IMG/VR virus record: IMGVR_UViG_3300044970_001522
Location: 22,278-86,277 of that record
From: a virus
Taxonomy: Duplodnaviria; Heunggongvirae; Uroviricota; Caudoviricetes
Reading direction: 5' to 3' (one strand)
DNA: 64,000 nucleotides
The translations under genes and the position numbers were made by a program. The notes beneath the pieces were generated by a model that was not told where the DNA came from, ran no database searches, and saw nothing but the letters and a program-made list of their open reading frames with translations. Positions 1,597-63,254 of the stretch are shown one piece after another (position 1 is the stretch's first letter; each line of letters starts with the position of its first letter).

Positions 1597-1642
1597 GGGG
1601 CGGTTTCCCGCCCTTGTTTCTGCATCGCAGAAACGCTATACT
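1597..1642 (+). promoter_or_regulatory. cassette promoter: GC palindrome + TTGTTT-N17-TATACT
   Basis: GGGGCGGTTTCCCGCCC, spacer palindrome TTTCTGCatcGCAGAAAC. Confidence 0.6.
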
Positions 1643-1665
1643 AAATCAGTTGAAGGACACCCGCA

Positions 1666-2034
1666 ATGACAAACCCGCAGTGGGACGACAAAGAGTACCG
1701 AGAAGCTTACATGGAAGCCTCCATTGAGCAAGCGATTTCCTGGCAAGTAAAAATAAACAGGCAAAAGCGAGGTCTGACAAAACAACAACTTGCAGATAAG
1801 GCTGGAGTTATAGTGGGAGTTATAGAGAGGTTAGAAGACCCCGAGATAAACGACCACAGCATAGATCTCCTGGTGAAAGTGGCCAAAGCTTTTGACTGTG
1901 CTCTCTCAATTAAGCTGCTCTCATACGAGCAACTCGCGCAAGAAAGTCTCGATTTGTCCGAAGAGACTCAGTATGTCCTGCCCTTTCGCACTCGCACCTC
2001 CCCGTTAACCCACTCGCCGGAGCAAACCCAATGA
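1666..2034 (+). CDS. HTH (XRE-family) transcriptional regulator
   Basis: QKRGLTKQQLADKAGVIVGVIERLE HTH motif; ATG 24 nt after the -10 of a cassette promoter. Confidence 0.5.
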   Translation: MTNPQWDDKEYREAYMEASIEQAISWQVKINRQKRGLTKQQLADKAGVIVGVIERLEDPEINDHSIDLLVKVAKAFDCALSIKLLSYEQLAQESLDLSEETQYVLPFRTRTSPLTHSPEQTQ

Positions 2035-2297
2035 AAACCCTCAGAGACAGAATCCAAGCACTTACCAAGCAAAACCTCCAACAACTAACCGAAGACTACG
2101 AACAGTTTGAGAGAGACGGGGCGATTGGTGACTGCTACCTTCGTTCAACTGCGAAAGAATTTGCAGAGTCTCTCGGGATACAGGTATCCGGCGTGTTGTG
2201 GATGGACAGGGTCGCCTTCGAGGCATACCGTGAGCTTTACTACCGAGTACTGCAGGACTTACCGTACGAGTGCAGCGGAAGTGGGTACACGGTCTAG
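2031..2297 (+). CDS. hypothetical protein
   Basis: ATGA-overlapped with upstream gene. Confidence 0.3.
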   Translation: MKTLRDRIQALTKQNLQQLTEDYEQFERDGAIGDCYLRSTAKEFAESLGIQVSGVLWMDRVAFEAYRELYYRVLQDLPYECSGSGYTV

Positions 2298-2311
2298 TTT
2301 CACCCCCGTAC

Positions 2312-2357
2312 GCGGCGGGAAACCGCCCTTTACCCCCACCCCTAAACAAGCTATAGT
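2312..2357 (+). promoter_or_regulatory. cassette promoter variant (TTTACC-N17-TATAGT)
   Basis: GGCGGGAAACCGCCC palindrome. Confidence 0.5.
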
Positions 2358-2379
2358 AAGCTCACACCGTAAAACAACA

Positions 2380-3321
2380 ATGCACGTGACCGAAACTGAA
2401 GAGTATCAGAAAACAGAGCCGATTGAGGTTTACTCGAATCGCGACGGACAAAACCTGTACAAGATTTCAAAGACCTCCTTTACGTTCAGTGCCGGTGAAA
2501 GGCAGGTTCGATTGCACGACACTCCCACGAGTTCGACTGACATTATCGTAGACGCAGACATACACAGCGGAGAAAGTTTCGCAGAACTTCTTCTGACTCT
2601 GTCGGCAATCAAAGACCTTCCTGTGCTGCGAAGTCTACAATTGGATATCCCGTACTTCCCTTATAGCCGCCAAGACCGCCAGTGCGCCGAAGGGGAAGCG
2701 TTTTCGCTAAGAACTTTTGTAAAAGCTCTCGCTCCCTACCTTGACGGGGTAGGCGATAGGGTGTACACATGGGACGTGCACAGCCACGTTGCAAATGAGC
2801 TCATTCGAACCGAAATCGGCTGCGAGTTCAACAACCTACAACCCCAACTGTTTCTCCAGAAGTTCAAAGACCGGGGGCAAGAGTTTAGTGCTAAGACAAT
2901 TGTGATTGCTCCGGATAAAGGTGCAGTCGAAAGAGCAACCCTCGTTCAACAAGCACTGGGACTCCACTCTGTAGTGTACGCTACGAAAGTTCGCAACCCC
3001 AAAGACGGGCAAATCCTAAGGACGGAAGTTCCAGAAGACGTCAGTTACAAGGGCAAAAACCTTCTGATTGTAGACGACATCTGCGACGGTGGTCGCACCT
3101 TTATCGAACTCGCCAAGGTGCTACGTCAGTTCGACCCGTCTCGAATTGACCTTTATGTCACCCATGGAATTTTCTCTAAGGGTTTTGAGGTGTTTGGGGA
3201 CTTGATTGACAACTTTTATGTTGCGAACTTACTACCAAACAGATCCTTCTACAAAGAGCTTCCCTCGAACTTGACCCACCTTCGCACCGAAAACTACCCC
3301 ACCCCACGCAACCAACCATGA
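2380..3321 (+). CDS. ribose-phosphate pyrophosphokinase (Prs) homolog; candidate ADPR-PP/PRPP synthetase
   Basis: Prs motifs DIPYFPYSRQDRQ (cf. PYFGYARQDR) and PRPP-binding loop NLLIVDDICDGGRTF; ATG 2380 follows promoter cassette (the track ORF starting at 2107 overlaps upstream gene and promoter). Confidence 0.6.
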   Translation: MHVTETEEYQKTEPIEVYSNRDGQNLYKISKTSFTFSAGERQVRLHDTPTSSTDIIVDADIHSGESFAELLLTLSAIKDLPVLRSLQLDIPYFPYSRQDRQCAEGEAFSLRTFVKALAPYLDGVGDRVYTWDVHSHVANELIRTEIGCEFNNLQPQLFLQKFKDRGQEFSAKTIVIAPDKGAVERATLVQQALGLHSVVYATKVRNPKDGQILRTEVPEDVSYKGKNLLIVDDICDGGRTFIELAKVLRQFDPSRIDLYVTHGIFSKGFEVFGDLIDNFYVANLLPNRSFYKELPSNLTHLRTENYPTPRNQP

Positions 3322-4832
3322 AAATTTTTGCGCCCCACGCAACCGACTTTTACAAGACGGGACACCCTTCGCAAAACCCTGAAGGCACCGAAGTAATCTA
3401 CGCCAACATGACGGCAAGGTCCGACCGTCTGGCGAACATGCCTGCTGATTTCGATCACAAGATCGTCGTGGCGAATGTCCAAGGGACAATGAAGTGGATG
3501 CTGAGGGATCTTTGGAATGAGACCTTTTTTCAGCAACCCAAGGCCAAGGTGTTGGATAAGTACAAACGGCGAATGGATTCATCCCTCGGCGAAGGTGTCG
3601 TAGGAACGGACCACATTGCTGAGCTTCACGACATGGGTTACATGCCGCTGCATGTGAAGGCACTACCCGAGGGCAGCCGTGTTAACATCGGAGTGCCGTT
3701 TCTGACGGCGCAAAACACACACAATGAGTTTAAGTGGCTGGCCCCGTGGTTAACCAACTATGTCGAAACCGCCAAGTCGTCTGAGCTGTGGAAGGCCATC
3801 AACGTGGCAACCATCGCCTACGAGTTTCGCCGTCTTCTCGACCACTACGCTGAAACCACAGGGAGTAATCCGCAGTTTGTTGACTTTCAGGGGCACGACT
3901 TCTCCGCTCGCGGAGTCGGAGGCATTCACGATGCCGCTGCGCACCAAATCGGCCACCTTTTTTCCTTCAAGGGCACGGACACAATCCTTTCCATTGATTA
4001 TTTGGAGGATTACTACGATTGCGGTTCCAATTTCATTGGGGGTAGTATTCCCGCTACGGAACACAGTGTGACCTGCCTTGGCGGTCAAAGAAACGAATTA
4101 GAGACAATTCGTCGAATTATTACAAAAGTATACCCAACTGGGCCGGTCAGTGTAGTTTTTGACACTTGGAACTACTGGGATGCACTGACTGTTATTGCAC
4201 CCGCACTTAAGGAAGACATCTTAAATCGTCGTCCGAATTCTCAGGGCATCGCTAAGGTCGTATTCCGTCCCGACAGTGGTGACCCTGAGAAAATCATCTG
4301 CGGTGACGCTGACGCTGAGCCAGGTAGCCGAGAGTACAAAGGTTCGCTTGAGCTTTTATGGGAGGTCTTCGGAGGAACGGTAAACGAGAAGGGTTTCAAG
4401 GTACTGAACCCTCGAGTTGGCTTAATTTACGGCGACTCAATCACTCTTCCACGGGCCAGGGCCATCCTGGAGCACATGAGGCAGCTTGGGTGGGCGTCCG
4501 AAAACATCGTGTTCGGTATCGGTTCCTACACCTATCAATACCATACACGGGACACGTTCGGTATCGCATACAAAACGACCTGGGGGCAAATTAACGGTGT
4601 CGCCGTTGAAACTATGAAGGACCCCATTACGGATCGCGGCACGAAAAAGTCGGCGTTGGGTCTACTGCGAGTTGAAAAGGATGGGGAGAACTTTGTTCTT
4701 CATCAACAGCAGACTCGTGAGCAAGAGCAGCGAGGCGAGCTTCGCACCGTGTTCTTAAACAGCGTGGTTTACGGGGAGGATGTAAACTCACTGCCTAACA
4801 TTCGTACTCGACTTCTCAACCCCGCAGCTTAG
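3318..4832 (+). CDS. nicotinamide phosphoribosyltransferase (NAMPT/NadV-like)
   Basis: 504 aa; NAMPT-like stretches (GTDTILSIDY, FGIGSYTYQYHTRDT, MKDPITDRGTKKSALGLLRV); ATGA-coupled to the Prs-like gene. Confidence 0.7.
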   Translation: MKIFAPHATDFYKTGHPSQNPEGTEVIYANMTARSDRLANMPADFDHKIVVANVQGTMKWMLRDLWNETFFQQPKAKVLDKYKRRMDSSLGEGVVGTDHIAELHDMGYMPLHVKALPEGSRVNIGVPFLTAQNTHNEFKWLAPWLTNYVETAKSSELWKAINVATIAYEFRRLLDHYAETTGSNPQFVDFQGHDFSARGVGGIHDAAAHQIGHLFSFKGTDTILSIDYLEDYYDCGSNFIGGSIPATEHSVTCLGGQRNELETIRRIITKVYPTGPVSVVFDTWNYWDALTVIAPALKEDILNRRPNSQGIAKVVFRPDSGDPEKIICGDADAEPGSREYKGSLELLWEVFGGTVNEKGFKVLNPRVGLIYGDSITLPRARAILEHMRQLGWASENIVFGIGSYTYQYHTRDTFGIAYKTTWGQINGVAVETMKDPITDRGTKKSALGLLRVEKDGENFVLHQQQTREQEQRGELRTVFLNSVVYGEDVNSLPNIRTRLLNPAA

Positions 4833-4842: not shown

Positions 4843-4875
4843 AGGGGGTTTACACCCCCTGTTCCGGGGTATAAT
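4843..4875 (+). promoter_or_regulatory. variant promoter (GGGGGTTTACACCCCC palindrome + TATAAT)
   Basis: palindrome overlapping TTTACA -35; TATAAT 16 nt downstream. Confidence 0.4.
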
Positions 4876-6178: not shown

Positions 6179-6393
6179 TCTGTGCGAAAGGTTAAAGGAA
6201 TAGTAAAGGGAGCGAAGTTGCTGGCTGAACTCACCCTGTACTTTGCCGTGGCGTGCGGATCAGCTTATGGTGCCTTGAGACAGGGTTGGCCACCCGAGAT
6301 TCTGGCGGTGTCAGTAATTGCCGGCGGGTGGACTTACTTATTCTTGGACTCAGATGGCTACTAGCCCACATACTCGATTAACCGTTTGCTTTA

Positions 6394-6437
6394 GGGCGGT
6401 TCTCCGCCTTGTTTATGCTCCGAAAAAGCGGTAAAAT
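6394..6437 (+). promoter_or_regulatory. cassette promoter TTGTTT-N17-TAAAAT
   Basis: GGGCGGTTCTCCGCC. Confidence 0.5.
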
Positions 6438-7653: not shown

Positions 7654-7710
7654 CCGTTTGCTCCGGGGCGGTTTCCCCGCCTTGCCTTTCCGAGAGGAAA
7701 GCGGTATACT
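7643..7710 (+). promoter_or_regulatory. double cassette: GGTTAACC half-element + full promoter TTGCCT-N17-TATACT
   Basis: GGGGCGGTTAACCG then GGGGCGGTTTCCCCGCC; spacer CTTTCCgagaGGAAAG. Confidence 0.6.
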
Positions 7711-7738: not shown

Positions 7739-8083
7739 ATGGCACAGAAACTTTTCAAAGTTGAGCGGTACGAATTTGACTTTGTGCTGGCCGAAGACGC
7801 AAAACAGGCCAGAGACTTTGAGATCGGGGACAGCGACCCGACAAAGACTGTGACTGAGATCACAGAGATGTCTCCCGAACAAGAGGGGTTTAAATGGAAC
7901 CCGTACGATGCTAGATCCCGCACTTGGGCTGACGAAACCTGCGGAGTATGGCTCAAGCGTACCGAAGGGGACCGTCTTCGTGAGAAAGAAGCAGAGCAAC
8001 TTGTAGGACTTGCCTTGTCTAAGCTTTCCTCAGTGGAGAAAGCCGCAGTTTTGGAATGGGCGTCGAAACAACCGAAGGTCTGA
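7739..8083 (+). CDS. hypothetical protein
   Basis: follows double promoter cassette 7643-7710. Confidence 0.35.
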   Translation: MAQKLFKVERYEFDFVLAEDAKQARDFEIGDSDPTKTVTEITEMSPEQEGFKWNPYDARSRTWADETCGVWLKRTEGDRLREKEAEQLVGLALSKLSSVEKAAVLEWASKQPKV

Positions 8084-8781
8084 CCTTTGCTCTGGTAACC
8101 TACTACAAGAAAGTGCCCAACCCAACTAGCGAAACCTTCGACAAGATCCTAAGCTTCGACCCTTTAGCCGCCGCCGAACGTTTAACCGAATCTTCCTACA
8201 AAGAGAGCCCAGGTACAGTGTCCCTTGGAATGGCAATGGCTCAGGAATACAATCGTCTAAAGTCCCGAGCTCTGTCTGAGACCAACGACACCTTCTTAGG
8301 CATTACTTTTGACGACTATCTTGGAGTCTTAGACAGCTTGGGGTTCAAAGAACTACTTTCCGGTGCTGTTCCTGGTACAGAGGACAAATGGGCAGTTTAC
8401 TGGAGGGATGGAGTTTTGGTTTTTTCCGACTCTTACGGTGGTGGAAAAAGTCTCAATAGTGGAAGGGCATATTTTAACTACTCACCCAAAAACAGCGAAA
8501 GTGCGTACTTGCCAGGGTTTAGCGGGTGTGCGGTTTTAGACGACAACGAAAGAGCGGTGTGGGCAGGGTACATTGACGTTGGAAAGGGCTTACGCCACCG
8601 CCTTACAACAATGGAACAGAACGGTCAGTTACTGAAAGGGTGGCTGAAGCAACCCTTTCTTTGGTTGTTGCACTACAATGACACAAAAGCTCCGGGATAC
8701 TCCTACGAGGATATAAACAAGCAAAGGTTGGAACAGCTCCCTGACGATGTGCAAAAAGCGATCCAAGGGCGGTTACCTTAA
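8056..8781 (+). CDS. hypothetical protein
   Basis: 241-aa ORF, + strand colinear. Confidence 0.3.
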   Translation: MGVETTEGLTFALVTYYKKVPNPTSETFDKILSFDPLAAAERLTESSYKESPGTVSLGMAMAQEYNRLKSRALSETNDTFLGITFDDYLGVLDSLGFKELLSGAVPGTEDKWAVYWRDGVLVFSDSYGGGKSLNSGRAYFNYSPKNSESAYLPGFSGCAVLDDNERAVWAGYIDVGKGLRHRLTTMEQNGQLLKGWLKQPFLWLLHYNDTKAPGYSYEDINKQRLEQLPDDVQKAIQGRLP

Positions 8782-9266: not shown

Positions 9267-9282
9267 CACTATGGGCGCCGAG

Positions 9283-9325
9283 GACGGTTTCCACCCTTGT
9301 CTTTGCTCGGCAAAGACGGTATGAT
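9283..9325 (+). promoter_or_regulatory. cassette promoter TTGTCT-N16-TATGAT
   Basis: GGACGGTTTCCACCC; spacer TTTGCtcgGCAAAG. Confidence 0.5.
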
Positions 9326-10206: not shown

Positions 10207-10274
10207 GGGGCGGTTAACCCCCTTGCCCTAGGGCGGTTTACACCCTTGTTTCTGCTCTGCAGAAACGGTATAAT
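10207..10274 (+). promoter_or_regulatory. double cassette, TTGTTT-N17-TATAAT
   Basis: GGGGCGGTTAACCCCC then GGGCGGTTTACACCC; spacer TTTCTGCtcTGCAGAAAC. Confidence 0.6.
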
Positions 10275-10922: not shown

Positions 10923-10967
10923 GGGCGGTTTCCCGCCATTGTTTCTGCTCTGCAGAAACGGTATCAT
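10923..10967 (+). promoter_or_regulatory. cassette promoter TTGTTT-N16-TATCAT
   Basis: GGGCGGTTTCCCGCC; same spacer palindrome as 10252. Confidence 0.55.
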
Positions 10968-11284: not shown

Positions 11285-11327
11285 GGGCGGTTTGCCCCCT
11301 TTTTTCCTTATCGGCTGACCCCATACT
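11285..11327 (+). promoter_or_regulatory. degenerate cassette (GGGCGGTTTGCCCCC ... CATACT)
   Basis: palindrome present, hexamers weak. Confidence 0.3.
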
Positions 11328-11332: not shown

Positions 11333-12442
11333 ATGGAACTAAACCTGCGCCACTTTCTAATCGACTGGTTAAACTACCGGGTCGAGACTGCTTTTGAAGC
11401 ACTTGCCGAGCACGACATTCGTGTCGCTCGCGACGAACGTTACCCTGCTCTTTTTAACTTGAAGTATGGCAGTGTAATGGCGGACAAGTCACTACCGATT
11501 GTTCGTGCCTGCCGTGGTGCCGTAGTCGAACTTGTTGACGATGGCACGGGCTCCCCGTACTTTCGGCTGGTTGCGTACGCCTTCGACCGCTTTTTCAACG
11601 TTGGCGAGGGGTATGCCGCTGAGATTGATTGGTCCACTGCCCGTGTAGCTGAGAAGTATGACGGGTCTCTGATCAAGTTGTTCAACTATAAAGGAGAGTG
11701 GTTGGTATCAACATCGGGTTCAGTCGCTGGTTCTTCGGAAGTCGGGACCACGGGTCGCTCCTTCTCCGAGTTGTTTTGGCACGTTTTTAATGAAGTTGAA
11801 TATGACCGGGCTGACCTCGACCCTTATTTTGTCTACGTCTACGAATTGTGCCACAAAGACAACAAAATTGTTGTAGACTACGAGACTCCCCTTTTACCTC
11901 TCTTAACTGTACGTAGCGTAATAGATGACCTGAACGAAAAGGATCTCAAGTACTTTGAGAACCGTTTCAATATCGCTCAGACCTACGACCTGCGCTCACA
12001 TGAAGCTGTAACCCAGTTTGTAAACGACTCTTCTCGTGGTACCGCTGAAGGCGTAATTATTGTCGACGGAAACGGAAACCGCCAGAAAGACAAGTCCAAC
12101 GTCTATTGTCAGTTGCACAGGGTTAAAGGAAACGGCGAACCGGATTTCTCCGAGCTTTTCCTGAACGACGACTTGGAAGAGTTTCTGCTTCACTTTCCCG
12201 AGTATCGTGGGGGTTTTGACGTTCACCTGCGTTCCATCGAAGTGATGGAGAGTGCGGTGAGCGAGAACATGAGGGCTCACAACCATCTTAACCAGAAGGA
12301 TTTCGCTCAAGCCGTACTTGCCGAGTCAAAAGAACTTTCTGGAGCATGCTTTGCGATTCGATCCGGCAAAGTCGGATCCTTTGCAGAGTGGCTCGAAGGT
12401 TTAACCCCAAAAAAGCTCGACGTTTTGCTTGGGATTGCCTGA
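11333..12442 (+). CDS. RNA ligase (Rnl1-like nucleotidyltransferase)
   Basis: motif I AEKYDGSLIKLF (KxDGS adenylyl-lysine motif as in T4 Rnl1 KEDGSL). Confidence 0.55.
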   Translation: MELNLRHFLIDWLNYRVETAFEALAEHDIRVARDERYPALFNLKYGSVMADKSLPIVRACRGAVVELVDDGTGSPYFRLVAYAFDRFFNVGEGYAAEIDWSTARVAEKYDGSLIKLFNYKGEWLVSTSGSVAGSSEVGTTGRSFSELFWHVFNEVEYDRADLDPYFVYVYELCHKDNKIVVDYETPLLPLLTVRSVIDDLNEKDLKYFENRFNIAQTYDLRSHEAVTQFVNDSSRGTAEGVIIVDGNGNRQKDKSNVYCQLHRVKGNGEPDFSELFLNDDLEEFLLHFPEYRGGFDVHLRSIEVMESAVSENMRAHNHLNQKDFAQAVLAESKELSGACFAIRSGKVGSFAEWLEGLTPKKLDVLLGIA

Positions 12443-13205: not shown

Positions 13206-13270
13206 GGGGGAAACCGCCCCGGAAAACGGCGGTTTCCACCCTTGTTTTCTTCGGAAAACAACGCTATAGT
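13206..13270 (+). promoter_or_regulatory. double cassette, TTGTTT-N17-TATAGT
   Basis: GGGGGAAACCGCCCC then ACGGCGGTTTCCACCC; spacer TTTTCTTCGGAAAAC. Confidence 0.55.
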
Positions 13271-14911: not shown

Positions 14912-14920
14912 GGACCCATA

Positions 14921-14964
14921 GGGCGGTTTCCCCCCTTGCCTCCGTGGATCAAACGAGCTAAACT
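14921..14964 (+). promoter_or_regulatory. cassette promoter TTGCCT-N17-TAAACT, leaderless ATG at +7
   Basis: GGGCGGTTTCCCCCC. Confidence 0.5.
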
Positions 14965-17837: not shown

Positions 17838-17902
17838 AGGGGGCAAACCGCCCTAAACGTTCTGTTTTCCGTCTTGTTTCTGCGGGGCAGAAACGGTATA
17901 CT
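17838..17902 (+). promoter_or_regulatory. cassette promoter TTGTTT-N17-TATACT
   Basis: GGGGGCAAACCGCCC upstream; spacer TTTCTGCggggCAGAAAC. Confidence 0.55.
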
Positions 17903-18168: not shown

Positions 18169-18232
18169 GGGGGTAACCGGTTGCCCTGGGGCGGTTTACC
18201 CCCTTGCCCTTCCGAAGGGAAAACGGTATAGT
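18169..18232 (+). promoter_or_regulatory. double cassette TTGCCC-N17-TATAGT; conserved +1 region TTACTTCAGTCCA
   Basis: GGTAACCGGTTGCC then GGGGCGGTTTACCCCC; spacer CTTCCgaagGGAAA. Confidence 0.6.
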
Positions 18233-20294: not shown

Positions 20295-20448
20295 TTTCCC
20301 CCGTTTGTCACATTAAATTCGACACAGTTTACCTCCCCATCGAAGACGCAATTTCTGCCGCCGCAGACTGGTGAGAGCTACCAGCCTGAACTCGACGGGC
20401 ACCCCCTTATCAAGGTTTTGTCGGTCGTTTCTCCGTAGCGTAGGGGCA

Positions 20449-20492
20449 GGGCGGTTTACCCCCTTGCCTTTCCGACAGGGAAGCGGTAAACT
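20449..20492 (+). promoter_or_regulatory. cassette promoter TTGCCT-N17-TAAACT
   Basis: GGGCGGTTTACCCCC; spacer TTTCCgacaGGGAAG. Confidence 0.6.
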
Positions 20493-21769: not shown

Positions 21770-21812
21770 GGCGGTTTCCCCCCTTGCCTTCCCGGCAGGA
21801 AAGCGGTATAGT
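21769..21812 (+). promoter_or_regulatory. cassette promoter TTGCCT-N17-TATAGT (tandem duplicate of 22081)
   Basis: spacer CTTCCCggcaGGAAAG; +1 TTACTTCAGTCCAC. Confidence 0.6.
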
Positions 21813-38503: not shown

Positions 38504-38515
38504 ACCGTTTTCCTA

Positions 38516-45106: not shown

Positions 45107-45151
45107 AGGCGGTTTCCCCTCCTTTCCCTTGCGAAGAGACAACGCTATAAT
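45107..45151 (+). promoter_or_regulatory. cassette promoter with TATAAT, leaderless ATG at +7
   Basis: GAGGCGGTTTCCCCTCC. Confidence 0.5.
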
Positions 45152-45631: not shown

Positions 45632-45635
45632 CGCA

Positions 45636-47586: not shown

Positions 47587-47653
47587 GGGCGGTTAACCCT
47601 CCTTCATGGGGCGGTTTCCACCCTTTGTTTCTGCCTCGCAGAAACGGTATAGT
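47587..47653 (+). promoter_or_regulatory. double cassette TTGTTT-N17-TATAGT, leaderless ATG at +7
   Basis: GGGCGGTTAACCC then GGGGCGGTTTCCACCC; spacer TTTCTGCctcGCAGAAAC. Confidence 0.6.
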
Positions 47654-50217: not shown

Positions 50218-50385
50218 AGCCCCTGACGCTTCTGTCACAGGGGCAGAGGCCAAGCTCGAGACTTTAGACCCCACGACCCCGTGGTACGAGTTTCTCTCCT
50301 ACTGTGAAGCTTGTCGGAGCTTAAACGTGAAAGCGTCTGTTGGTCGCTTCACCCGTTACCAAAACTATATTCGAACTATTTCGCT

Positions 50386-51165
50386 ATGAGTTACACAGGA
50401 CAGTTAATAACCTTTGAAGGTCTTGACGGCTGCGGAAAAACAACTCAGCTTAAGGCTGTTTTCGAGTGGCTTGTTACCAGCGGTCGACTACCATGGGGAG
50501 TTAAGGTGGTTACAACTCGAGAGCCAGGATGTTTACCCGGTGTGCGAGACTTGCTTAAGAACCCTAAGGCTGCGATCACACCGAAAGCCGAACTTTTACT
50601 GCTCATGGCCGACCGGGCTCAGCACGTTGCAACAGTAATAATGCCGGAGCTAGAAAAGGGCAACTGGGTGTTATGCGACCGATTTTACGCAAGCACCTTA
50701 GCCTATCAAGGGTGGGGACGAGGTTTGGGATCTGAAGCGGTAGAGAAAGCCCACGAACTTGCCTGCGGAGTCTTGTACCCTGACTTAGAACTGTTTTTCG
50801 ACGTTCCCGTTGATGAGTCTATGAGACGGCTCTCAAGGCGAGAAAACGACGGGCTGACTGTCCGAGACAGATTTGAGCGGTCAGAACGACCTTTTTTCGA
50901 CCGTTTGCTTACAGGGTTTCAAACCCCTAACGAACAACTGGGACTGAAATGTTACCCCGTGGTTACAATCGACGGGTGTCAAACGGTTGACGAGGTTACT
51001 CAGGAATGCATACGACAAGTGTCCAAGCTTTTACCACGTGAGGAGAACTTCACGAATGTGCCACCGTGCCGAGCAAAAGATCCTGAGTTTTGGTACGACA
51101 CTTCTAAAGAAACTTACAAAGTTCGGCTTGAGCGGGAGACCTCATGGAGTCAGCCACGATCTTGA
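50386..51165 (+). CDS. tmk: thymidylate kinase
   Basis: GQLITFEGLDGCGKTTQ P-loop and Tmk-like downstream sequence; start could also be 50311. Confidence 0.65.
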   Translation: MSYTGQLITFEGLDGCGKTTQLKAVFEWLVTSGRLPWGVKVVTTREPGCLPGVRDLLKNPKAAITPKAELLLLMADRAQHVATVIMPELEKGNWVLCDRFYASTLAYQGWGRGLGSEAVEKAHELACGVLYPDLELFFDVPVDESMRRLSRRENDGLTVRDRFERSERPFFDRLLTGFQTPNEQLGLKCYPVVTIDGCQTVDEVTQECIRQVSKLLPREENFTNVPPCRAKDPEFWYDTSKETYKVRLERETSWSQPRS

Positions 51166-52036: not shown

Positions 52037-52101
52037 GAACGGTTAACCCTTACCTTAGGGCGGTTAACCCCCTTTATTCTGCCCTATAGAAACGGTATAG
52101 T
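52037..52101 (+). promoter_or_regulatory. double cassette TTTATT-N17-TATAGT
   Basis: GAACGGTTAACCC then GGGCGGTTAACCCCC. Confidence 0.5.
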
Positions 52102-52693: not shown

Positions 52694-52760
52694 CGACGGT
52701 TAACCGAACCTTTCGAGGACGGTTTCCCCGCTTGCCTTTTCAATCGTAAGACGCTATAGT
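52694..52760 (+). promoter_or_regulatory. double cassette TTGCCT-N17-TATAGT, leaderless ATG at +7
   Basis: CGACGGTTAACCG then GGACGGTTTCCCCGC. Confidence 0.55.
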
Positions 52761-53872: not shown

Positions 53873-55360
53873 ATGACATTTGTGACAGAAAACTTAACGA
53901 AGAGTTCTAAAGCCGCTTCAACCGGAAATGAAAAATGCAACGATAACTGTTCTGTAAGTGAAGCCGTTGTCTGTGATTTAAGCTCTCGCCAAGAGCCCCG
54001 CCGAATCGACCTCGACAAGCTATACGAGTGTGACCCGAAAGACTACATTGGCTATTTCGCCGACGAAACCTCTTACGACAACCTTATTCAAGAAGACTGC
54101 GACGTTTATGTGGGCGGAGTGAAAGTTGTTGCCTTTCGTAAGGCACTTTTTCCGAAGCTGCGCGATGGTTCGAAAGGTAGCCCGGAAACTTGGAAATACT
54201 TCCGCTGGGCAGCAAGAGACTTGTACTCAGACCAACGAGGCCTAGTTGCTGGTAGAGAACTAACTACCCAACTCGAGATAAGGGTAACCAACGGTATTCT
54301 AAACTTCTTCAAGAAGGCGATGGCCGGTCAAGTCACTGACTTGGAAGAGGCACTGAAAATTGCTTCTCTCTCCCCCGACATGTCAAAGCTCACTGTCCGA
54401 GTGAATGATGTTAAAAAGGACTTCCCAGAAATTGAGAAAGCTTTAGAATCTATCGAGAAGGAACTTCGCAAGAAAACGCTGAGCGAAGAAAGAAAGGTAG
54501 AGCTGAAGGAAGCGAAGGGTAGAGAACTTGCGAAGTGGTTCCCGACGTGGCTATCCAAGACTTGGAGTGTATCTAAGGACAAGGTTTCTGAGGCGAAACG
54601 TGCCGACGACAGGTATGTGGGAAAACAATACCGTTCAAACAAGTGCTATTCCAACGTGATTGGTGCTTTTGATAGGGGTGCACGTAACCCTTACGGTCGT
54701 TTGACCGCAACAACTGTAAAAGACTATGAGGGGTTCGTAAGCCACACGGATATTTATCAGACAGCTTGTTCCGCACTCAAAGAGACCCTAAACACTCCGG
54801 AAAACCCTCGGTGGGACCGCCTTCACGAACGGTTCAGTAACGTGAAAGACCCGCACTATAACCTCTTCGGTACGGTGTTCACTGCCCTTACGTTAAACTG
54901 GAACTTCCGTTGTGCGATGCACTACGACGGTAATAACTGCGAAGGTGGTATTGCCGTTCTTACTGCAATTACTCAAGGGGAATATGACGGCCATTACCTT
55001 GTGTTCCCTGAAATTCGTTGCGCTTTCGACCTTCGTGATGGGGACTTTATTGCCGGTGACAATCAGGGACTGATTCACGGTAACACTGCAATGATTCCGA
55101 AGACGCCTGACGCTGAACGAGTTTCGTTCGTTTTCTATTCACGAGAGCGCATGACCGCTCTTGACGATATGGAGTGTGAGGAGTGCCGCCGAGATTTCAT
55201 GCGATACGCAGCAGACAATCACAAGGAGTATGGAAAGGGTCACAAGACCTGGAATGGTGTTTGGAGCGGAATGTGGAAATCACCGGAATGGATGACGTAT
55301 AAAGCCGAACACGGCTTAGAACGTTGCTCAAATACTAACTATTGGGGCACCGAGAATTAA
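53873..55360 (+). CDS. TET/JBP-family 2OG-Fe(II) dioxygenase-like protein
   Basis: AMHYDG (HxD) ... 52 aa ... LIHGNT (distal His) ... RVSF 14 aa later (2OG Arg), spacing as in JBP/TET catalytic cores; ~300-aa N-terminal extension. Confidence 0.4.
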   Translation: MTFVTENLTKSSKAASTGNEKCNDNCSVSEAVVCDLSSRQEPRRIDLDKLYECDPKDYIGYFADETSYDNLIQEDCDVYVGGVKVVAFRKALFPKLRDGSKGSPETWKYFRWAARDLYSDQRGLVAGRELTTQLEIRVTNGILNFFKKAMAGQVTDLEEALKIASLSPDMSKLTVRVNDVKKDFPEIEKALESIEKELRKKTLSEERKVELKEAKGRELAKWFPTWLSKTWSVSKDKVSEAKRADDRYVGKQYRSNKCYSNVIGAFDRGARNPYGRLTATTVKDYEGFVSHTDIYQTACSALKETLNTPENPRWDRLHERFSNVKDPHYNLFGTVFTALTLNWNFRCAMHYDGNNCEGGIAVLTAITQGEYDGHYLVFPEIRCAFDLRDGDFIAGDNQGLIHGNTAMIPKTPDAERVSFVFYSRERMTALDDMECEECRRDFMRYAADNHKEYGKGHKTWNGVWSGMWKSPEWMTYKAEHGLERCSNTNYWGTEN

Positions 55361-55744: not shown

Positions 55745-55789
55745 AGACGGTTTCCCGCCCTTGCTTCTACAGCGTAGACACGGTAAAAT
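55745..55789 (+). promoter_or_regulatory. cassette promoter TTGCTT-N17-TAAAAT
   Basis: GACGGTTTCCCGCCC; spacer TCTACagcGTAGA. Confidence 0.55.
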
Positions 55790-57405: not shown

Positions 57406-58272
57406 TTGACGCTCCGACAACAGTCACATCAACTGCACTCAAATATGGACTATCAGATTGCCATCCCAACTTACGGAAGGCCCGATGGAGTGAAGAAACT
57501 CACTCTGAATTACCTTGAAAAAACAGACATTAATTGTTCCCACGTGACTTTATTCGTGGCAAACGATGAAGAGAAGGAAATTTACCAGAGTTCAAACCCT
57601 ACATACAATATCGTTGTTGGTGAAAAGGGTTTGACAAAACAACGTCACTTCATCTCTAACTTTTACGACAAAGGGACTCCTGTTTTTTCGTTCGACGACG
57701 ACGTTAGCGCCGTTGAGGAACTTGAGCTCTTAAAAGACCTTGAGGGGACTCAGAAGCCACTTGACCACCCGTGTCGCCTGAAAACCGTGGTGGAACTCTC
57801 GGATCTTATCGATCGCGGCTTCCGAATGTCCAAGCGGCGCAATATTGGCCTGTTCGGTTTCTATGCCGTTCGCAACAAGGGTTTTCTTCACCCAAAGGTG
57901 ACTGTGGGGCTCAAGTTCATTATGGGCCACGCATTTGGTTTCTACGCAGGCGACCCAGCCTTTGATCTAATCGCTGAGTACAGTATGAAGGACGACTACT
58001 TCTTGTCTCTGTACCACACTGTTAATGGAAACGGGACACTGCGATTCGACAACATCTGTGTGAAAGCTAAACAGCACACAGGCGGTGGCGGAACCTGCGA
58101 AGACATGGAGCGAAAGCTTCAGATTAATAACCAAACCGTAGAGAAACTTTGTGCTGAGTTTCCGGACCTCGCGAGTCCAAAGAGCCGTCGAACAAAGGAT
58201 GAGTGGCTTTCCCGGTACTCTGAAATCCGCCTCAAAACAATCACAAACGAGACAATCTCAGTGCTTAACTGA
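57406..58272 (+). CDS. GT-A fold (family 2-like) glycosyltransferase
   Basis: IAIPTYGRPD (cf. GT2 IPTYNR) and FSFDDDV DxD motif. Confidence 0.4.
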   Translation: MTLRQQSHQLHSNMDYQIAIPTYGRPDGVKKLTLNYLEKTDINCSHVTLFVANDEEKEIYQSSNPTYNIVVGEKGLTKQRHFISNFYDKGTPVFSFDDDVSAVEELELLKDLEGTQKPLDHPCRLKTVVELSDLIDRGFRMSKRRNIGLFGFYAVRNKGFLHPKVTVGLKFIMGHAFGFYAGDPAFDLIAEYSMKDDYFLSLYHTVNGNGTLRFDNICVKAKQHTGGGGTCEDMERKLQINNQTVEKLCAEFPDLASPKSRRTKDEWLSRYSEIRLKTITNETISVLN

Positions 58273-58278: not shown

Positions 58279-58322
58279 AGGCGGTTTTCCGCCCTTTACT
58301 GTAAGCTCCTCTCCCCTATGTT
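58279..58322 (+). promoter_or_regulatory. cassette promoter variant (TTTACT ... TATGTT)
   Basis: GGCGGTTTTCCGCCC. Confidence 0.35.
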
Positions 58323-60245: not shown

Positions 60246-60764
60246 ATGTCAAACTCCCAAGACCTAATTGAGAAGCTTAAAGACCAGATAGCATTCCTGA
60301 CTGCCGAGCTCGACCGAGCCCAGCGAAAGTCAAACTCCCTTTGGAGTCAAATTCAAGGAGCGTTTCTCCAGGAGGGCAACGACGAAGAGAACGCAGAGTT
60401 CTGGGCCGACAAAATTTCGCAGATTTTATCTGAGTGGGTTCACACTCAGCGGACGAGCCTCTCCCAGAAGATAGTAGAAACGGGTGCAATGCCCCCTTAT
60501 ACCGACTGTCTCAATCACCTTGTGGTTAGTCTCTCGCCCCCTGGCTCAGCTCCCCCGAGCCTTCCCCCTGAGTTCACAGAGCTTTCCAACACTCCCTCAC
60601 CTGGACCAACTTTCAGTCCAACAGGTTTGGAAGCACCGGCTTACGGGGGCCTGTCCGCAGACGCGCAAGTGGGACCGCCGAAAGAGCGCAAGATCGGGGT
60701 GCCTAAGGCTATTCCCGGTGCGGTACCATTGCCGTTGCCCCCACTTTCAGAGGGTTCCCCTTAA
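60246..60764 (+). CDS. coiled-coil/Pro-rich protein
   Basis: PPGSAPPSLPPEFTELSNTPSPGP. Confidence 0.3.
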   Translation: MSNSQDLIEKLKDQIAFLTAELDRAQRKSNSLWSQIQGAFLQEGNDEENAEFWADKISQILSEWVHTQRTSLSQKIVETGAMPPYTDCLNHLVVSLSPPGSAPPSLPPEFTELSNTPSPGPTFSPTGLEAPAYGGLSADAQVGPPKERKIGVPKAIPGAVPLPLPPLSEGSP

Positions 60765-60779
60765 GCGAGTCATTTGCTT

Positions 60780-60845
60780 AGGCGGTTTCCCGTTCACCCT
60801 GGGGCGGTTTCCCGGCTTGTCTCTGCGGAGCAGAAACGGTATACT
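60780..60845 (+). promoter_or_regulatory. double cassette TTGTCT-N17-TATACT
   Basis: AGGCGGTTTCCCG then GGGGCGGTTTCCCGGC; spacer TCTGCggaGCAGA. Confidence 0.55.
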
Positions 60846-61195
60846 TAGTGTAACTCCCGAGTCAAGTACCCAACAACAATGCTAAACCTTGAAGTTTCAA
60901 ACCGAATCACAGCTGCTGAAGCTTCACAGAGGTTTGTAACTCCCCCGGACCCACAAGCTAACCCTGAAACCGTGAGGAGATTTTTGGAGCACTGCTACAA
61001 AGCCATACGTGAGGATATTAATAGGGGTTACGGTGTCAAGTATACGAACGTTTACCTTGGAGACTGCGATTACTCCACTAAAGGGGAAGTTGCTAGAGTT
61101 CTAGAAGAAGAAGACGGGTACAAGGTTAGACTAGTTGGGACCCTTCACATTTTAATTTCCTGGTAATTTAATCACAACTACTTAACCTTGAAACC

Positions 61196-61741
61196 ATGGC
61201 AACTATTTACAAACCACCGGCACAGCTACCCCCTTTCTCGTCGAGGCTCAGTGTATTTCTTGCAGGTTCAATAGAAATGGGCTCTGCACCCGACTGGCAA
61301 GCTGACCTCGAACGTAGTCTTGCTGACCTTGACATTGACATTTACAATCCGCGACGCGACGATTGGGACCCAACTTGGGTTCAAAGCGCCGATAACCCGG
61401 TGTTTCGAGAGCAGGTTGAGTGGGAGCTTGATGCCCTAGAGATGGCTGGCATGGTTGTCATGTATCTGGCACCGGGTACCATTAGTCCTGTTTCTTTGCT
61501 CGAACTCGGCTTCGTCACCGGACTCGCTCTCTTTCTCAATGTCAGAAACACGGTTGTGTGTTGCCCAGAGGGGTTCCACCGTAAGGGCAACGTTGACATT
61601 GTCTGTAACCGATATGGGATTCCACAGGTTTCAAGTCTAGAGGGACTTGAACTGGCCATACGAAAAGAAAGTGCAAGGGTACAGAAACTGAAGTCTTGGG
61701 GGAATCGTGGGAGCATTGAGACGAGAAACCCTGGAGAGTAA
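61196..61741 (+). CDS. nucleoside 2-deoxyribosyltransferase-like protein
   Basis: VFLAGSI...W...VMYLAPGTISPVSLLELGFVTG resembles the NDT/DNPH1 fold signature (xAGxx...GTxxExG). Confidence 0.45.
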   Translation: MATIYKPPAQLPPFSSRLSVFLAGSIEMGSAPDWQADLERSLADLDIDIYNPRRDDWDPTWVQSADNPVFREQVEWELDALEMAGMVVMYLAPGTISPVSLLELGFVTGLALFLNVRNTVVCCPEGFHRKGNVDIVCNRYGIPQVSSLEGLELAIRKESARVQKLKSWGNRGSIETRNPGE

Positions 61742-62100
61742 GCATGACCGGCACCACCTTTAACTACCCACCCCATTTACCCGACTTCGAAGACATGGAC
61801 TCGGACGGTGCCATTGAAATTTTGATGGGAGAAGAAGAGGACGGGTACCAACATACTCGTTTCGAGAATGTGGCGCACTATAGAAACCAGGGGTTAACGC
61901 ACCCTTGGCGTCACACCAAAGACTGGGTCCCAACTTACGATCCCTCAGAGGGAGACTTTGCATGGGCTTTGTCAAGAGTTTTGGACAAAATTACCTGTGC
62001 TAGTCACCTTCATTCCATGGCCCTTGGGCTCACCGACGAGGAATGCCGACGCATATACTCAATGCGAGACCGGGCTAGGGAGGTAGCGAAGCACGAGGGG

Positions 62101-62160
62101 TAACCGGTTGCTCTGGGGCGGTTTCCCGCCTTGTTTTCTCGAAGAGAAAACGCTATAGTA
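62101..62160 (+). promoter_or_regulatory. double cassette TTGTTT-N18-TATAGT
   Basis: TAACCGGTTGC then GGGGCGGTTTCCCGCC; spacer TTCTCgaaGAGAA. Confidence 0.55.
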
Positions 62161-62189
62161 GTTACAAGACAAACGCTCCCGAGAAAGAC

Positions 62190-62651
62190 ATGAAAGGACA
62201 ACTCCTCAATAAAATGCTGGTACTGGCGACCAACGCCCACGCCGATCAGTACGACAAGGGTGGCAACCCTTACATTTTGCATCCGCTCAAGGTGATGCAT
62301 TACCTGAAAACAAACGACGTTGAACTTCAGTGCATTGCGCTCGGCCACGACATCATTGAAGACACCAAGGTCACCTACGCAGATTTACGTGATCAGGGAT
62401 TCACTGCCCGAATTATCGAAGGCATTCGATGCCTAACGAAAGCACCAGGGGAGACCTACGAAGAGTATAAGTTCCGTGTCTTCTCAAACGAAGACGCCAT
62501 GAGAGTGAAACTCTGTGACTTAAGGCACAATACTGACGTTCGGCGTCTGAAAGGTGTCACCGAGAACGACCTTAAGCGAATGGCTAAATACCACATGTTT
62601 TACATGGAAATTCAAGCCCGGTTGCAAAATTCCGACGAAGGTGATTCTTGA
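62190..62651 (+). CDS. HD-domain (p)ppGpp hydrolase-like small alarmone hydrolase
   Basis: GGNPYILHPLKVMHYL...ALGHDIIEDT matches the RelA/SpoT/Mesh1 HD hydrolase motifs. Confidence 0.6.
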   Translation: MKGQLLNKMLVLATNAHADQYDKGGNPYILHPLKVMHYLKTNDVELQCIALGHDIIEDTKVTYADLRDQGFTARIIEGIRCLTKAPGETYEEYKFRVFSNEDAMRVKLCDLRHNTDVRRLKGVTENDLKRMAKYHMFYMEIQARLQNSDEGDS

Positions 62652-62998
62652 GGAGACTTAATCGAGTTCGCAAAAAGCCAGAATGCTACAGCCCCGGCAG
62701 GGCCAAGTCCTACACCGAAATTGCAGAGAACGACTGCTTTACGTGCCCTGAAAGAGTAACTTGCCTTGAATTTGTTGCTGAAGTTAAGGAAATGGTTGCT
62801 GCCGGTGCGTCAACCAGTCACCGTCCCCCACCACTCCCTACCCCTGAGCAAATCATTGCACTGGCTGAGTCTACGGACCTAGTCTACGTGAATAACTACG
62901 GATGCGTCTATTCACCCTACGTTGAAGATACAGATATTCGCGACATCGTGGTGAATTTTGCCATCAAGCTCCTATACACTTACGATAACTTGCCATGA
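62648..62998 (+). CDS. hypothetical protein
   Basis: ORF. Confidence 0.3.
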   Translation: MRRLNRVRKKPECYSPGRAKSYTEIAENDCFTCPERVTCLEFVAEVKEMVAAGASTSHRPPPLPTPEQIIALAESTDLVYVNNYGCVYSPYVEDTDIRDIVVNFAIKLLYTYDNLP

Positions 62999-63188
62999 CT
63001 GACCCCCTCAAAGCCCAAACTAACATTGCCAACCGTAGATGAAATTATGCTTTTGGCGTGTCCAACTGAGTTGGTGTTCCCAACCCTCCTTGGGCCGCAC
63101 TTTACAAATATTCCAGATGGAGTAGATATTACACCTGCGCTAGTTAACTTTGCCACTGAACTCTTGAACAAATTTGGTACAGGGGGCG

Positions 63189-63254
63189 GGGCGGTTAACC
63201 CTTTTCCCTAGGGCGGTTTCCCGGCTAGGTTTATCGGGGGGGAACCGGTATAGT
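63189..63254 (+). promoter_or_regulatory. double cassette ending in TATAGT
   Basis: GGGGCGGTTAACCC then GGGCGGTTTCCCGGC; spacer GGTTtatcgggggggGAACC. Confidence 0.45.

Follow-up and report, generated by a model that had tools for sequence, protein, structure and literature searches.

A repeated promoter and stem-loop cassette, probably of the PeSL type, along one strand of a large uncultured phage

The 64 kb stretch of phage DNA analysed here, referred to as the window, carries a repeated unit of approximately 57–75 bp in 29 strong and about six weak or partial copies, every one of them on the plus strand and between genes. The elements follow a set order: an optional distal CGGTTAACC, the GC palindrome GGGCGGTTTMCCSCC, the −35 hexamer TTGYYT, which the palindrome adjoins on the upstream side, a 17-nt spacer and CGSTATAST. 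Searching for GGGCGGTTTCCCGCCC with up to three mismatches returned 30 matches against 0.54 expected, and a position-weight matrix derived from 23 copies gave 32 hits on the plus strand and none on the minus strand, confirming the one-strand repetition described in the original prediction. Strong copies are the 29 hits scoring above 25 bits; the other three (2313, 32453 and 39444) are weak, and partial copies consisting of the hairpin only or of the hairpin and a −10 box lie at 4844, 11285 and 58279. The original count of at least 34 copies holds if degenerate copies are included and not otherwise. In most strong copies the GC palindrome begins 0–60 nt past the upstream stop codon. Placement of the unit in almost every gap above 40 bp was an overstatement: of 70 gaps measuring 40 bp or more on a rough ORF map, which counts too many gaps, 29 contain a cassette (28 strong and one weak). 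The motif is also found in related IMG/VR phage contigs, one of them 277 kb long, bringing the total to 153 distinct versions including those of the window.

The first cassette (1598–1642) contains GGGCGGTTTCCCGCCC, a −35 box TTGTTT (1614) and a −10 box TATACT (1637), with an 8 bp spacer dyad at 1616–1634 (loop ATC), and is the predicted driver of a helix–turn–helix (HTH) gene at 1666. Spacer dyads also occur in the cassettes at 7666–7710 (CTTTCC-gaga-GGAAAG, 7686–7701, with a distal CGGTTAACCG about 22 nt upstream), 9281–9325 (GTCTTTGC-tcg-GCAAAGAC, 9299–9317), 10230–10274 (GTTTCTGC-tct-GCAGAAAC, 10248–10266, replaced in orthologues by another loop or a wholly different dyad), 10923–10967 (10941–10959), 13226–13270 (TTGTTTTC-ttcg-GAAAACAA, 13242–13261, with an inverted distal element) and 17858–17902, where a perfect 8 bp dyad (17876–17894) accompanies a degenerate upstream palindrome. 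Further dyads are present at 18188–18232 (CCCTT-ccg-AAGGG, 18207–18219), 20448–20492 (CTTTCC-gaca-GGGAAG, one T·G mismatch), 21768–21812 (imperfect), 22080–22124 (CTTTCTC-gaa-GAGAAAG, 22099–22115), 23542–23586 (CTTTCC-gaca-GGAAAG, 23562–23577, upstream of a ribbon–helix–helix (RHH) gene at 23632), 27389–27433 (GTTTTTGC-tcg-GCAGAAAC, one T·G mismatch), 47609–47653 (8 bp, 47627–47645), 60801–60845 (TCTGC-gga-GCAGA, 60822–60834) and 62115–62159 (GTTTTCTC-gaa-GAGAAAAC, 62133–62151), as well as in a weaker cassette at 55745–55789 (TCTAC-agc-GTAGA, 55766–55778). The dyad is lacking in the cassettes at 6393–6437 (−10 TAAAAT), 14920–14964, 30000–30044 (perfect GC palindrome), 35985–36029, 42966–43010 (non-palindromic in four relatives too), 45107–45151, 52716–52760 and 63210–63254 (degenerate −35, TAGGTT) and in a weaker one at 29579–29623; that at 52057–52101, whose GC element is the GGTTAACC variant, has no perfect dyad. 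Inverted-loop hairpins mark the weak cassettes at 2313–2357 (CGGCGGGAAACCGCCC, TTTACC-17-TATAGT) and 32453–32497 (GGCGGGAAGCCGCCCC), and a weak, degenerate copy lies at 39444–39500. The partial unit at 4844–4875, upstream of an HNH gene, has a hairpin GGGGGTTTACACCCCC followed by GGGTATAAT and no −35 box.

The promoter portion, which precedes many small accessory genes, is of the σ70 type and highly constrained (TTGYYT, 17 nt, G at −14, TATAST and a purine at +1). The information profile is conserved from −51 to +2, with loop positions at about 0 bits, and the +1 position, 7 nt past the −10 box, is a purine in 148 of the 153 copies (97%). An ATG opening an ORF of at least 50 amino acids lies exactly 6 nt past the −10 box, at the predicted +1, in 27 of 161 contexts; the remaining offsets between 3 and 9 together give four. 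These 27 ORF starts speak for the −10 boxes being functional parts of promoters and, judged from sequence, the mRNAs concerned would be leaderless. Window examples are the ATGs at 10974 (6 nt past the −10 box, 102 amino acids), 14971 (115), 30051 (245), 45158 (157) and 52767 (201), together with those at the +1 positions 36036, whose ORF is frameshifted relative to that of L028, and 47660 (a basic ORF of 52 amino acids). Host RNA polymerase with its primary σ factor would initiate 7 nt past the −10 box, often on the ATG itself. The −35/17 nt/−10 spacing, the purine at +1 and the 27 ORF starts lend in silico support to the promoter assignment first proposed, and a start 7 nt past the −10 box centres the upstream palindrome at about −43.5, within the −42 to −45 originally given. 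The initial transcribed sequence TTACTTCAGTCCA, said to be shared by four copies, is exact in the copies at 18227, 21807 and 22119, whose transcripts would start with it, and carries a single mismatch in the copy at 38554.

For the upstream palindrome, conservation is mostly of the primary sequence and pairing is weak, unlike the pattern of a covarying hairpin. Most GC hairpins are weak, with a median of approximately −6.7 kcal/mol. In 53% of copies the two pairs at the centre do not form, and the conserved sequence alone would account for nearly all of the pairing (−6.7 versus −5.7). GC hairpins followed by a T-run stand alone, without a promoter, at 11285–11307 (GGGCGGTTTGCCCCC, then TTTTTTCC; terminator-like) and 58279–58300 (AGGCGGTTTTCCGCCC, then TTTACTG). 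Within the cassettes a clean U-run is absent after both the upstream and the spacer hairpins, and a generic terminator scan gave no enrichment over shuffled sequences (28 versus 23.4).

The spacer dyad stretches between the G of TTG and approximately −16 and occurs in about half to two thirds of copies, not nearly always as was first claimed: perfect stems of 5 bp or more are present in 15 of the 29 strong window copies, with a few more having one mismatch, and in 80 of the 153 family copies, whereas column-permuted controls average 24 and reach at most 38. The mean folding energy of the spacers is −5.8 versus −3.2 kcal/mol. At least ten different stems with random loops are found, two stem sequences dominating; both sides have changed in six of eight pairs, and none of 500 shuffles reached the observed score, a significance that is overstated by such controls since the copies are related. 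Orthologous loci preserve their palindromic state even where the sequence has been replaced. Covariation of the spacer arms accordingly has statistical support yet is weaker than proposed, given the two dominant stems, the nearly one half of copies that are stemless, the failure of RNAalifold to find a consensus structure across the mixed family set, and stem mismatches that are symmetric (seven T·G and seven C·A) and so give no sign of selection for the sense-strand RNA specifically.

Elements of this kind are already known. [quoted passage not shown] Our scan of RB49 recovered promoters of the form TTGACA-GGGGATCnnnGATCCCC-TATAAT with GGGGATC-N3-GATCCCC dyads within their spacers; stems of at least 7 bp are present in six of 32 spacers, and the mean stem is 3.5 bp against 2.6 bp in permuted controls. 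Conserved arms and a variable loop are common to RB49 PeSLs and the present cassettes, in unrelated sequence, and single-ORF indel junctions inside the element are a further feature shared with PeSLs; the cassettes lack the AT-rich UP-like region seen in RB49 PeSLs, and no T4-type core genes were found in approximately 650 kb of related DNA. We consider it likely that the unit combines promoter and terminator in one PeSL-type cassette, here in a large uncultured phage of virulent type, and we infer both promoter and terminator activity from its sequence. In read-through RNA the GC hairpin would fold first, followed by the U-rich −35 region and the left spacer arm, and the spacer hairpin would fold next, ahead of the UAUAGU of the −10 box; the two might act as tandem attenuators. 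Read-through attenuation, offered originally as an alternative, agrees with the published function of PeSL stem-loops (PMC2839356). That the hairpins are instead RNA-processing or stabilizing sites on polycistronic read-through transcripts, serving for RNase entry or as barriers against 3′ exonucleases, appears improbable. Serial genes on one strand with few strong terminators, two adjacent hairpins followed by the AU-rich −10 region, and about seven of 12 distinct tetraloop sequences fitting the stable GNRA or UUCG types are what such sites might be expected to show; however, the commonest tetraloop, GACA, is of neither type, stems of 5–8 bp fall below the requirement of RNase III, wobble-compatible mismatches show no strand asymmetry, the family lacks a consensus fold and no Rfam family matches the cassettes.

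A second reading, which could coexist with the PeSL reading and which we regard as unlikely, sees operators in the spacer dyads and/or the CGGTT-type elements at about −46 (proximal) and −68 (distal), bound by dimeric regulators of phage or host origin. [quoted passage not shown] Conserved arms around three or four random central bases form the classic operator pattern (CTGC-N3-GCAG in 38 distinct copies with 16 different loops, TTCC-N4-GGAA in 13); the dyads are found only inside cassettes, with a constant centre at about −24; their presence or absence is a conserved property of each locus, as expected for regulated and unregulated promoters; the two CGGTT elements are 22 bp apart; and genes for two HTH_3 proteins and one RHH protein lie in the window, the RHH gene having conserved counterparts in L005 and L023. 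The dominant arms GTTTCTGC/GCAGAAAC are moreover nearly identical in the divergent genome L065, in which the one flanking protein compared is 52% identical and coding DNA approximately 73–75% identical, which suggests sequence-specific recognition alongside or instead of pairing. Against operators stand the at least ten different stems and the unequal gap between TTTC and GAAA in the two main classes (9 versus 6 nt), which a single protein could hardly read alike, and no protein has been tied to the dyad sites. The HTH gene at 1666, originally put forward as a regulator, is a poor candidate because it is a strain-specific insert: the gene and its cassette are absent from L016 and L065, both of which keep cassettes and the flanking gene. 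RB49 PeSLs, among which the one tested stem-loop acted as a terminator, have the same arms-and-loop pattern, and the distal element resembles a shortened duplicate of a cassette (a hairpin with a TTGCYC remnant) of the 'half-PeSL' kind.

Comparison of relatives places the junctions of single-ORF indels inside cassettes. The ORF at 38225–38503, bounded by the cassettes at 38157–38201 on the left and 38515–38559 (dyad 38535–38550) on the right, is missing in L066, L034 and L064, the joint in the first two lying within shared GGGCGGTTTACCCCC. The cassette region 60745–60849 is duplicated in L015, L013 and L053 with an insert between the copies, which in L015 is an extra ORF of approximately 94 amino acids. 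Cassettes make up 3.8% of the window and hold eight of 62 synteny breakpoints (estimated Poisson p ≃ 0.003), and among orthologous cassettes entire spacers have been replaced and some arms are hybrids, as at 9281 compared with L061. Such replacements, the two dominant stem types and the kinship of the copies would all suit an origin of the spacer palindromes as an unselected by-product, through template-switch 'correction' of quasi-palindromes or recombinational spread of a few ancestral spacers. We find this quite improbable, as 31 distinct 8 bp copies combine perfect arms with randomized loops, each locus retains its palindromic state across different sequences, and RB49 has evolved a like arrangement from unrelated sequence.

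The joints vary in position within the cassette (the GC element, the spacer loop or next to the −10 box), which fits homologous rather than site-specific exchange. That the dyads are folded recombinase sites, making the cassettes an active integron-like system, or that a phage RNA polymerase reads the spacer hairpin as a structural promoter element in the DNA, is highly improbable. ORF-plus-cassette modules do come and go as units, and a site-specific protein had already been suggested by the authors of the PeSL work; neither RNA polymerase nor integrase families appear among the 25 of 38 Pfam families listed for the window ORFs. The virion RNA polymerase of phage N4 uses hairpin promoters, in which the hairpin lies at about −12 without −35 and −10 boxes. 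Stems of 5–8 bp and loops that are mostly of 3 nt (62 of 95 copies) resemble that geometry, whereas the dyads here are centred near −24 between good −35 and −10 boxes at 17-nt spacing, and half of the promoters have no hairpin at all.

The PeSL-type cassette is best read as a strong host-type promoter combined with stem-loops that damp read-through and with a joint for the swapping of small genes. Tandem attenuation would leave each small gene expressed mainly from its own promoter. With approximately 50 bp common to all copies, the cassettes would be substrates for homologous recombination, by which promoter-plus-ORF modules may be inserted, deleted or swapped.

The repeated intergenic unit is real, highly non-random and biologically meaningful. 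The sequence GGGCGGTTTCCCGCCC, with up to three mismatches allowed, occurs 30 times in the window against 0.5 expected, and a weight matrix derived from 23 obvious copies matched the + strand at 32 sites, 29 of them strong, and the − strand at no site. Three additional sites are remnants, consisting of the hairpin only or of the hairpin plus a −10. The density is roughly 30 cassettes per 64 kb. All window cassettes lie on the same strand as the ORFs; the strong copies are inter-ORF and, in most, the GC element (the palindrome abutting the −35 from upstream) begins 0–60 nt past the upstream stop codon. The one-strand repeat claimed in the original prediction is borne out by these counts; its statement that almost every gap larger than 40 bp carries a copy was too generous: a crude ORF map, on which gaps are overcounted, shows cassettes in 29 of its 70 gaps that are 40 bp or longer. 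The proposed search of related phage genomes was productive: a degenerate unit pattern retrieved 79 loci from IMG/VR, many of them 88–99% identical to parts of the window, and 25 of them from one 277-kb contig (IMGVR_UViG_3300044625_001067) in which cassettes occur on both strands. The window and these loci together yielded 259 matches with 153 distinct cores; the retrieval pattern for the related copies had been drawn from the cassette itself. At the cassettes, a search of Rfam 15 at the gathering score gave no match to described RNA families, and only tRNAs were found elsewhere in the window.

The information profile of the cassette family shows conservation from −51 to +2, in the order GG-CGGTTTMCCSSC, TTGYYT, YTGC-NNN-GCAGAAAC, G at −14, TATAST, WAnTny and a purine at +1 (97%). 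The promoter core TTGYYT-17 nt-TATAST is common to the 29 strong window copies and the 153 distinct family copies. Positions −51 to −36 are G/C-rich (GGGCGGTTTMCCSCC), a weaker CGGTTAACC sits exactly 22 nt upstream of the proximal CGGTT, and the loop positions of the spacer dyad, the inverted repeat between −35 and −10, hold essentially no information. A consensus reaching far beyond the −35 and −10 boxes, with G at −14, recalls the early ‘uber’ promoters of T4, which are many near-identical strong host-type promoters with an extended consensus including G at −14; the T4 promoters, however, have A/T-rich UP elements, and the review describes no spacer dyad in them (PMC2988021).

The position of start codons provides in silico support for the promoter reading of the original prediction. 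In 27 of 161 distinct contexts, an ORF of 50 aa or more opens with an ATG placed exactly 6 nt past the −10 hexamer, against four such cases for all other offsets from 3 to 9 combined. A peak this sharp at the predicted +1 is hard to explain unless the −10 boxes mark real transcription starts and the genes concerned are translated from leaderless mRNAs. Within the window such ATGs are found at 10974, 14971, 30051, 45158 and 52767; two further ones, at 47660 and 36036, open short or frameshifted ORFs. Many of the leaderless ORFs start ATGGAAAAC (Met-Glu-Asn). The counterpart of window 36036–36110 in a related locus (L028, 135–250) has an ATG at +1 that opens a 149-aa ORF. Just past the C-run the window has two extra bases (CACCCCCCAGAAC, against CACCCCAGTATAC in L028), which put the ATG at 36036 out of frame, and the only ORF remaining at that locus is an internal one of 134 aa (36074–36478); the difference in frame is either natural or a product of misassembly.

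In the spacer, 80 of the 153 copies have a Watson–Crick stem of 5 bp or more, against an average of 24 such copies, and never more than 38, in column-permuted controls that preserve the T-rich left and A-rich right sides, and the mean spacer folding energy is −5.8 kcal/mol versus −3.2 kcal/mol in the controls. In an ungapped alignment of 78 copies, six of the eight pairs show changes on both sides, a level of covariation reached by none of 500 shuffles and by no slid register; since paralogous and orthologous copies are not independent, a caveat issued by the tool itself, such shuffle statistics overstate significance. At least ten different stems exist and two dominate, namely GTTTCTGC-N3-GCAGAAAC (38 distinct copies with 16 loops) and CTTTCC-N4-GGAAAG (13 copies). 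Orthologous loci keep the palindromic state despite sequence exchange, and non-palindromic promoters remain so; three versions of the locus at 10230, for example, read TTTCTGC-tct-GCAGAAA, the same arms with the loop gac, and TTTTGC-tcag-GCAAAA. That the dyads arose without selection, by template switching, is possible and less well supported.

The covariation asserted in the original prediction therefore survives against 500 shuffles and in six of eight pairs, and its generality does not: nearly half of the copies are stemless, there is no family-wide fold, and the dyad said to be nearly always present in the spacer forms a perfect stem of at least 5 bp in 15 of the 29 strong window copies. 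RNAalifold returned no consensus structure for the 78 mixed copies. Stem mismatches are symmetric between the strands (T.G 7, C.A 7), and because the two counts are equal a test for RNA based on G.U tolerance is uninformative; the proposal that the hairpins are RNase processing sites on read-through RNA is likewise possible and less well supported. One related locus (L065) keeps the dominant arms nearly unchanged, though its PRPP-synthetase-like protein is only 52% identical. The stemless copies, the missing RNAalifold fold, the symmetric mismatches and the L065 arms argue against a simple reading of the dyad as structure only.

Conserved arms favour some sequence-specific reading. We consider an operator function for the dyads or the CGGTT elements unlikely: the two main stem classes differ in half-site spacing, there are about ten minor stems, nothing links a protein to the sites, and HTH_1666, the helix–turn–helix gene at 1666 named in the original prediction as a candidate regulator, is absent from cassette-bearing relatives. 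Two of these, L016 and L065, lack the gene together with its own cassette and possess the flanking gene and cassettes; window 1202–2012 (ORF 1210–1578, the cassette at 1598 and the HTH gene, 1666–2034) is replaced by ~230 bp in L016 (9178–9408), and the HTH_1666 protein has no homologue in any related locus examined. HTH_1666 was consequently rejected as a global regulator. The other candidate, the ribbon–helix–helix gene at 23632–24054, fares better in that it is conserved in L005 and L023, and is otherwise unconnected to the dyads. Multi-site repressor systems, such as the conserved inverted repeats of phiC31, the stoperators of mycobacteriophage L5 and the Arc/Mnt operators of P22, combine one conserved sequence with a known repressor in temperate phages. 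They resemble the present sites in comprising many short dyad or asymmetric intergenic sequences in one orientation to transcription, some within promoters, but here the stem sequences are many, no protein is linked to them and lysogeny genes were not seen. Still more doubtful, indeed improbable, is a reading of the dyads as more than passive terminators and patches of homology, namely as recognition sites of a dedicated phage protein, either a global repressor or a structure-specific recombinase. Were it true, a repressor would switch off together roughly 50 cassette promoters in the retrieved part of the 277-kb genome, whereas with a recombinase the promoter-plus-ORF modules would move as small circles, an integron-like gene-cassette system in a lytic phage.

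Promoters of the N4 type were also considered. Those of the N4 virion RNA polymerase have a hairpin centred at about −12, with a 5–7 bp stem and a 3-nt loop; they are without −35/−10 boxes and are used by a phage-encoded single-subunit RNA polymerase. The window dyads share with them a DNA hairpin of 5–7 bp stem and 3-nt loop inside a promoter, but their hairpin, which half of the copies do without, has its centre near −24, with a canonical −35 box on one side and a canonical −10 box on the other; the N4 type was rejected on this position and on the presence of the boxes. No RNA polymerase family is among the Pfam families listed for the window.

The upstream palindrome behaves differently from the spacer dyad. 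The GGGCGG...CCGCCC element occurs in nearly all copies with weak pairing: its two central pairs fail in 53% of copies, compensatory changes are hardly seen, and its folding energy of −6.7 is a slight gain over the −5.7 given by conserved sequence alone. The GC element is best described as conserved sequence from which a modest hairpin can fold. Hairpin energies have a median of ~−6.7 kcal/mol, with tails of the form TTGYYTYT; a simple terminator rule picked out five cassette hairpins in the first 20 kb, a region not enriched over shuffles. Stand-alone GC hairpins lacking a promoter and followed by T-runs are located at 11285 and 58279, and two weak copies have a hairpin with an inverted loop. 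As with an intrinsic terminator placed before a promoter, the T-rich tail of the GC hairpin doubles as the −35 region; unlike intrinsic terminators, most hairpins here are weak, with interrupted tails, and their sequence is conserved across copies.

Gene rearrangements are found at the cassettes. The ORF at 38225–38503, which lies between two cassettes, is missing from three related loci (L066, L034 and L064); in the first two of these, the joint is within the shared GC element AGGGCGGTTTACCCCC. The cassette region 60745–60849 is doubled, with an insert between the copies, in L015, L013 and L053; the insert in L015 is an extra ORF of ~94 aa. Cassettes account for 3.8% of the window and contain 8 of the 62 synteny breakpoints. 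Comparison of orthologous copies places joints at the GC element, within the spacer loop and beside the −10; this spread is better accounted for by homologous exchange along the ~50 bp that copies share than by cleavage at a single site. A different event affects the ORF at 8056–8781, in which a 456-bp stretch (8290–8745) has no counterpart in L016 and L061; this indel lies within the gene and is not bounded by cassettes.

These properties are those of the promoter-early stem-loops (PeSLs), promoter/terminator cassettes known in the T4-type phages RB49/phi1, PST/T4 and nt-1/KVP40 (PMC2839356; PMC4122927). PeSL stem-loops, frequently a polyG followed by a polyC, may lie between −35 and −10, overlap a box, or be upstream of −35 or downstream of −10 (PMC2839356). 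The stem-loop of PeSL211/210 cut lacZ expression as strongly as rrnB T1, very strong expression was obtained from the whole PeSL, and ORFs are deleted, inserted or swapped by recombination between PeSLs (PMC2839356); ‘half’ PeSLs and other stem sequences were added by a later paper (PMC4122927). PeSLs are further associated with ORF mini-circles that form when flanking cassettes recombine. Four PeSL features were found here, namely a sigma-70-like promoter (with 17-nt spacing in both), a stem-loop in or next to it (between −35 and −10 and/or just upstream of −35 in both), an intergenic unit repeated in regions packed with small ORFs, and ORF indels at cassettes (single ORFs, with junctions inside units, in both). 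G-run...C-run stems and partial ‘half’ copies are likewise common to the two. The ORFan region of RB49 holds promoters such as TTGACA-GGGGATCacgtATCCCC-TATACT, and in our scan 6 of 32 RB49 promoters have a spacer stem 7 bp or longer, the arms once more being conserved and the loops variable. Mapping by coordinates suggests that the ORF211/ORF210 promoter, the source of the tested stem-loop, also has it embedded in the spacer. A search of the literature for inverted repeats within the spacers of early phage promoters gave nothing relevant apart from the PeSL papers.

By its anatomy, therefore, the cassette matches the PeSL and belongs to this described class, and neither palindrome position is new, because PeSL anatomy and the RB49 spacer stems already show both. 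There are also differences. Most copies here combine two stem-loop positions; the loop of the upstream element is conserved (CGGTTTMC), and a second such element is often found 22 bp further upstream; an AT-rich UP-like region is absent; U/A pairs, not G/C pairs, prevail in the spacer stem; in about one promoter in six the predicted start coincides with the ATG; and the lineage is an uncultured one of ~277 kb whose affiliation to T4 is not established. The novelties are accordingly modest: two stem-loop positions per unit, the conserved CGGTT core with its 22-bp doubling, frequent leaderless starts and the uncultured ~277-kb lineage.

The gene content of the window (G+C ~50%, with nearly all long ORFs on the + strand) is of accessory/early type as judged from annotation of its ORFs, of which 125 are at least 45 aa long; 38 Pfam families were found in all, and many small ORFs are without annotation. 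An NAD-salvage pair (a PRPP-synthetase-like protein and NAMPT) and a T4-style RNA-repair set comprising two RNA ligases (Rnl1-type and Rnl2-type), phosphoesterase/PNKP-like (metallophosphatase) proteins and a 5′–3′ exonuclease are encoded at 2107–4832, 11333–12442, 24502–25554, 30051–30788, 45549–46364 and 46410–47294, and an HNH endonuclease is also present. The co-occurrence of a Tet/JBP dioxygenase, a glucosyltransferase-like protein and a thymidylate-kinase-like protein (53873–55360, 57406–58272 and 50311–51165), with a Pfam match to the TET-associated glycosyltransferase among the window ORFs, suggests cytosine hypermodification of the phage DNA. A 112-nt tRNA called by Rfam at 37200–37311 and missed by ARAGORN may contain an intron; ARAGORN called a 90-nt tRNA-Ile(TAT) at 42112–42201 that is below the Rfam gathering score, and 41786–41857 and 42291–42375 were listed with the tRNAs. 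The only long reverse-strand ORF (25264–26397, 377 aa) is without a Pfam match; the + strand opposite it has a 620-bp coding gap and L005 has an ORF of equal length, and it may be a genuine opposite-strand gene. A second HTH domain, of Cro/C1 type (Pfam HTH_3, E = 1e-6), lies at the extreme window start (3–224); it is kept in L008 and was not called by the gene caller in the matching Logan contig L164.

A megablast of 7 kb of the window against a phage collection found no near match among isolated phages. Protein searches point only loosely to assorted phages, among them the T4-like freshwater cyanophage B3, which for one window protein (DUF2828) gave the best match among isolates (62%). No comparable repeat was found in B3, whose frequent 10-mers, judged by eye, appear to be coding (tail-fibre) repeats. 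PHROG and Pfam scans of large ORFs in the related loci gave accessory functions only, and tblastn of B3 and RB49 ORFs, from regions with many T4 core genes, against the family DNA gave accessory matches and no T4 core gene. The matches listed in a scan of IMG/VR with the B3 capsid protein are cyanophages. An exact-protein look-up extended the window by 9.4 kb of further accessory genes and gave no record for the last window gene. When GTDB genomes were scanned with the cassette, 55 isolated matches came up; they lack homology to the window and gave no clue to the host. Four of the 55 are chance matches to an unrelated conserved bacterial terminator-plus-promoter locus (AAAGGCCGGTTTCCGGCCTTTTCTTTTTGCC...CGGTATAAT) in gut MAG contigs (L184, L201, L210 and L220), which has the same layout, its terminator tail overlapping the −35 of the next promoter.

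We propose that the host polymerase with its primary sigma factor would initiate 7 nt past the −10, and that RNA reading through from upstream would contain the GC hairpin with UUGYYUYU, then the spacer hairpin with the UAUAGU of the −10. The two hairpins could then act as tandem attenuators within the next promoter. Such insulation would be particularly sensible for leaderless genes, because ribosomes should seldom initiate at an internal AUG of a read-through RNA when no ribosome-binding site precedes it.

The 153 distinct versions, with their natural stem swaps, constitute a ready-made mutational series for asking whether structure, sequence or both matter, a question left open by the original PeSL papers. 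The start codons at +1 predict widespread leaderless translation in the host of the phage. PeSL-type cassettes are extended here to an uncultured ~277-kb lineage known so far only from metagenomes, with T4 affiliation unproven, and this supports the idea that large phages generally use fused promoter/terminator linkers to keep small accessory genes insulated and exchangeable.
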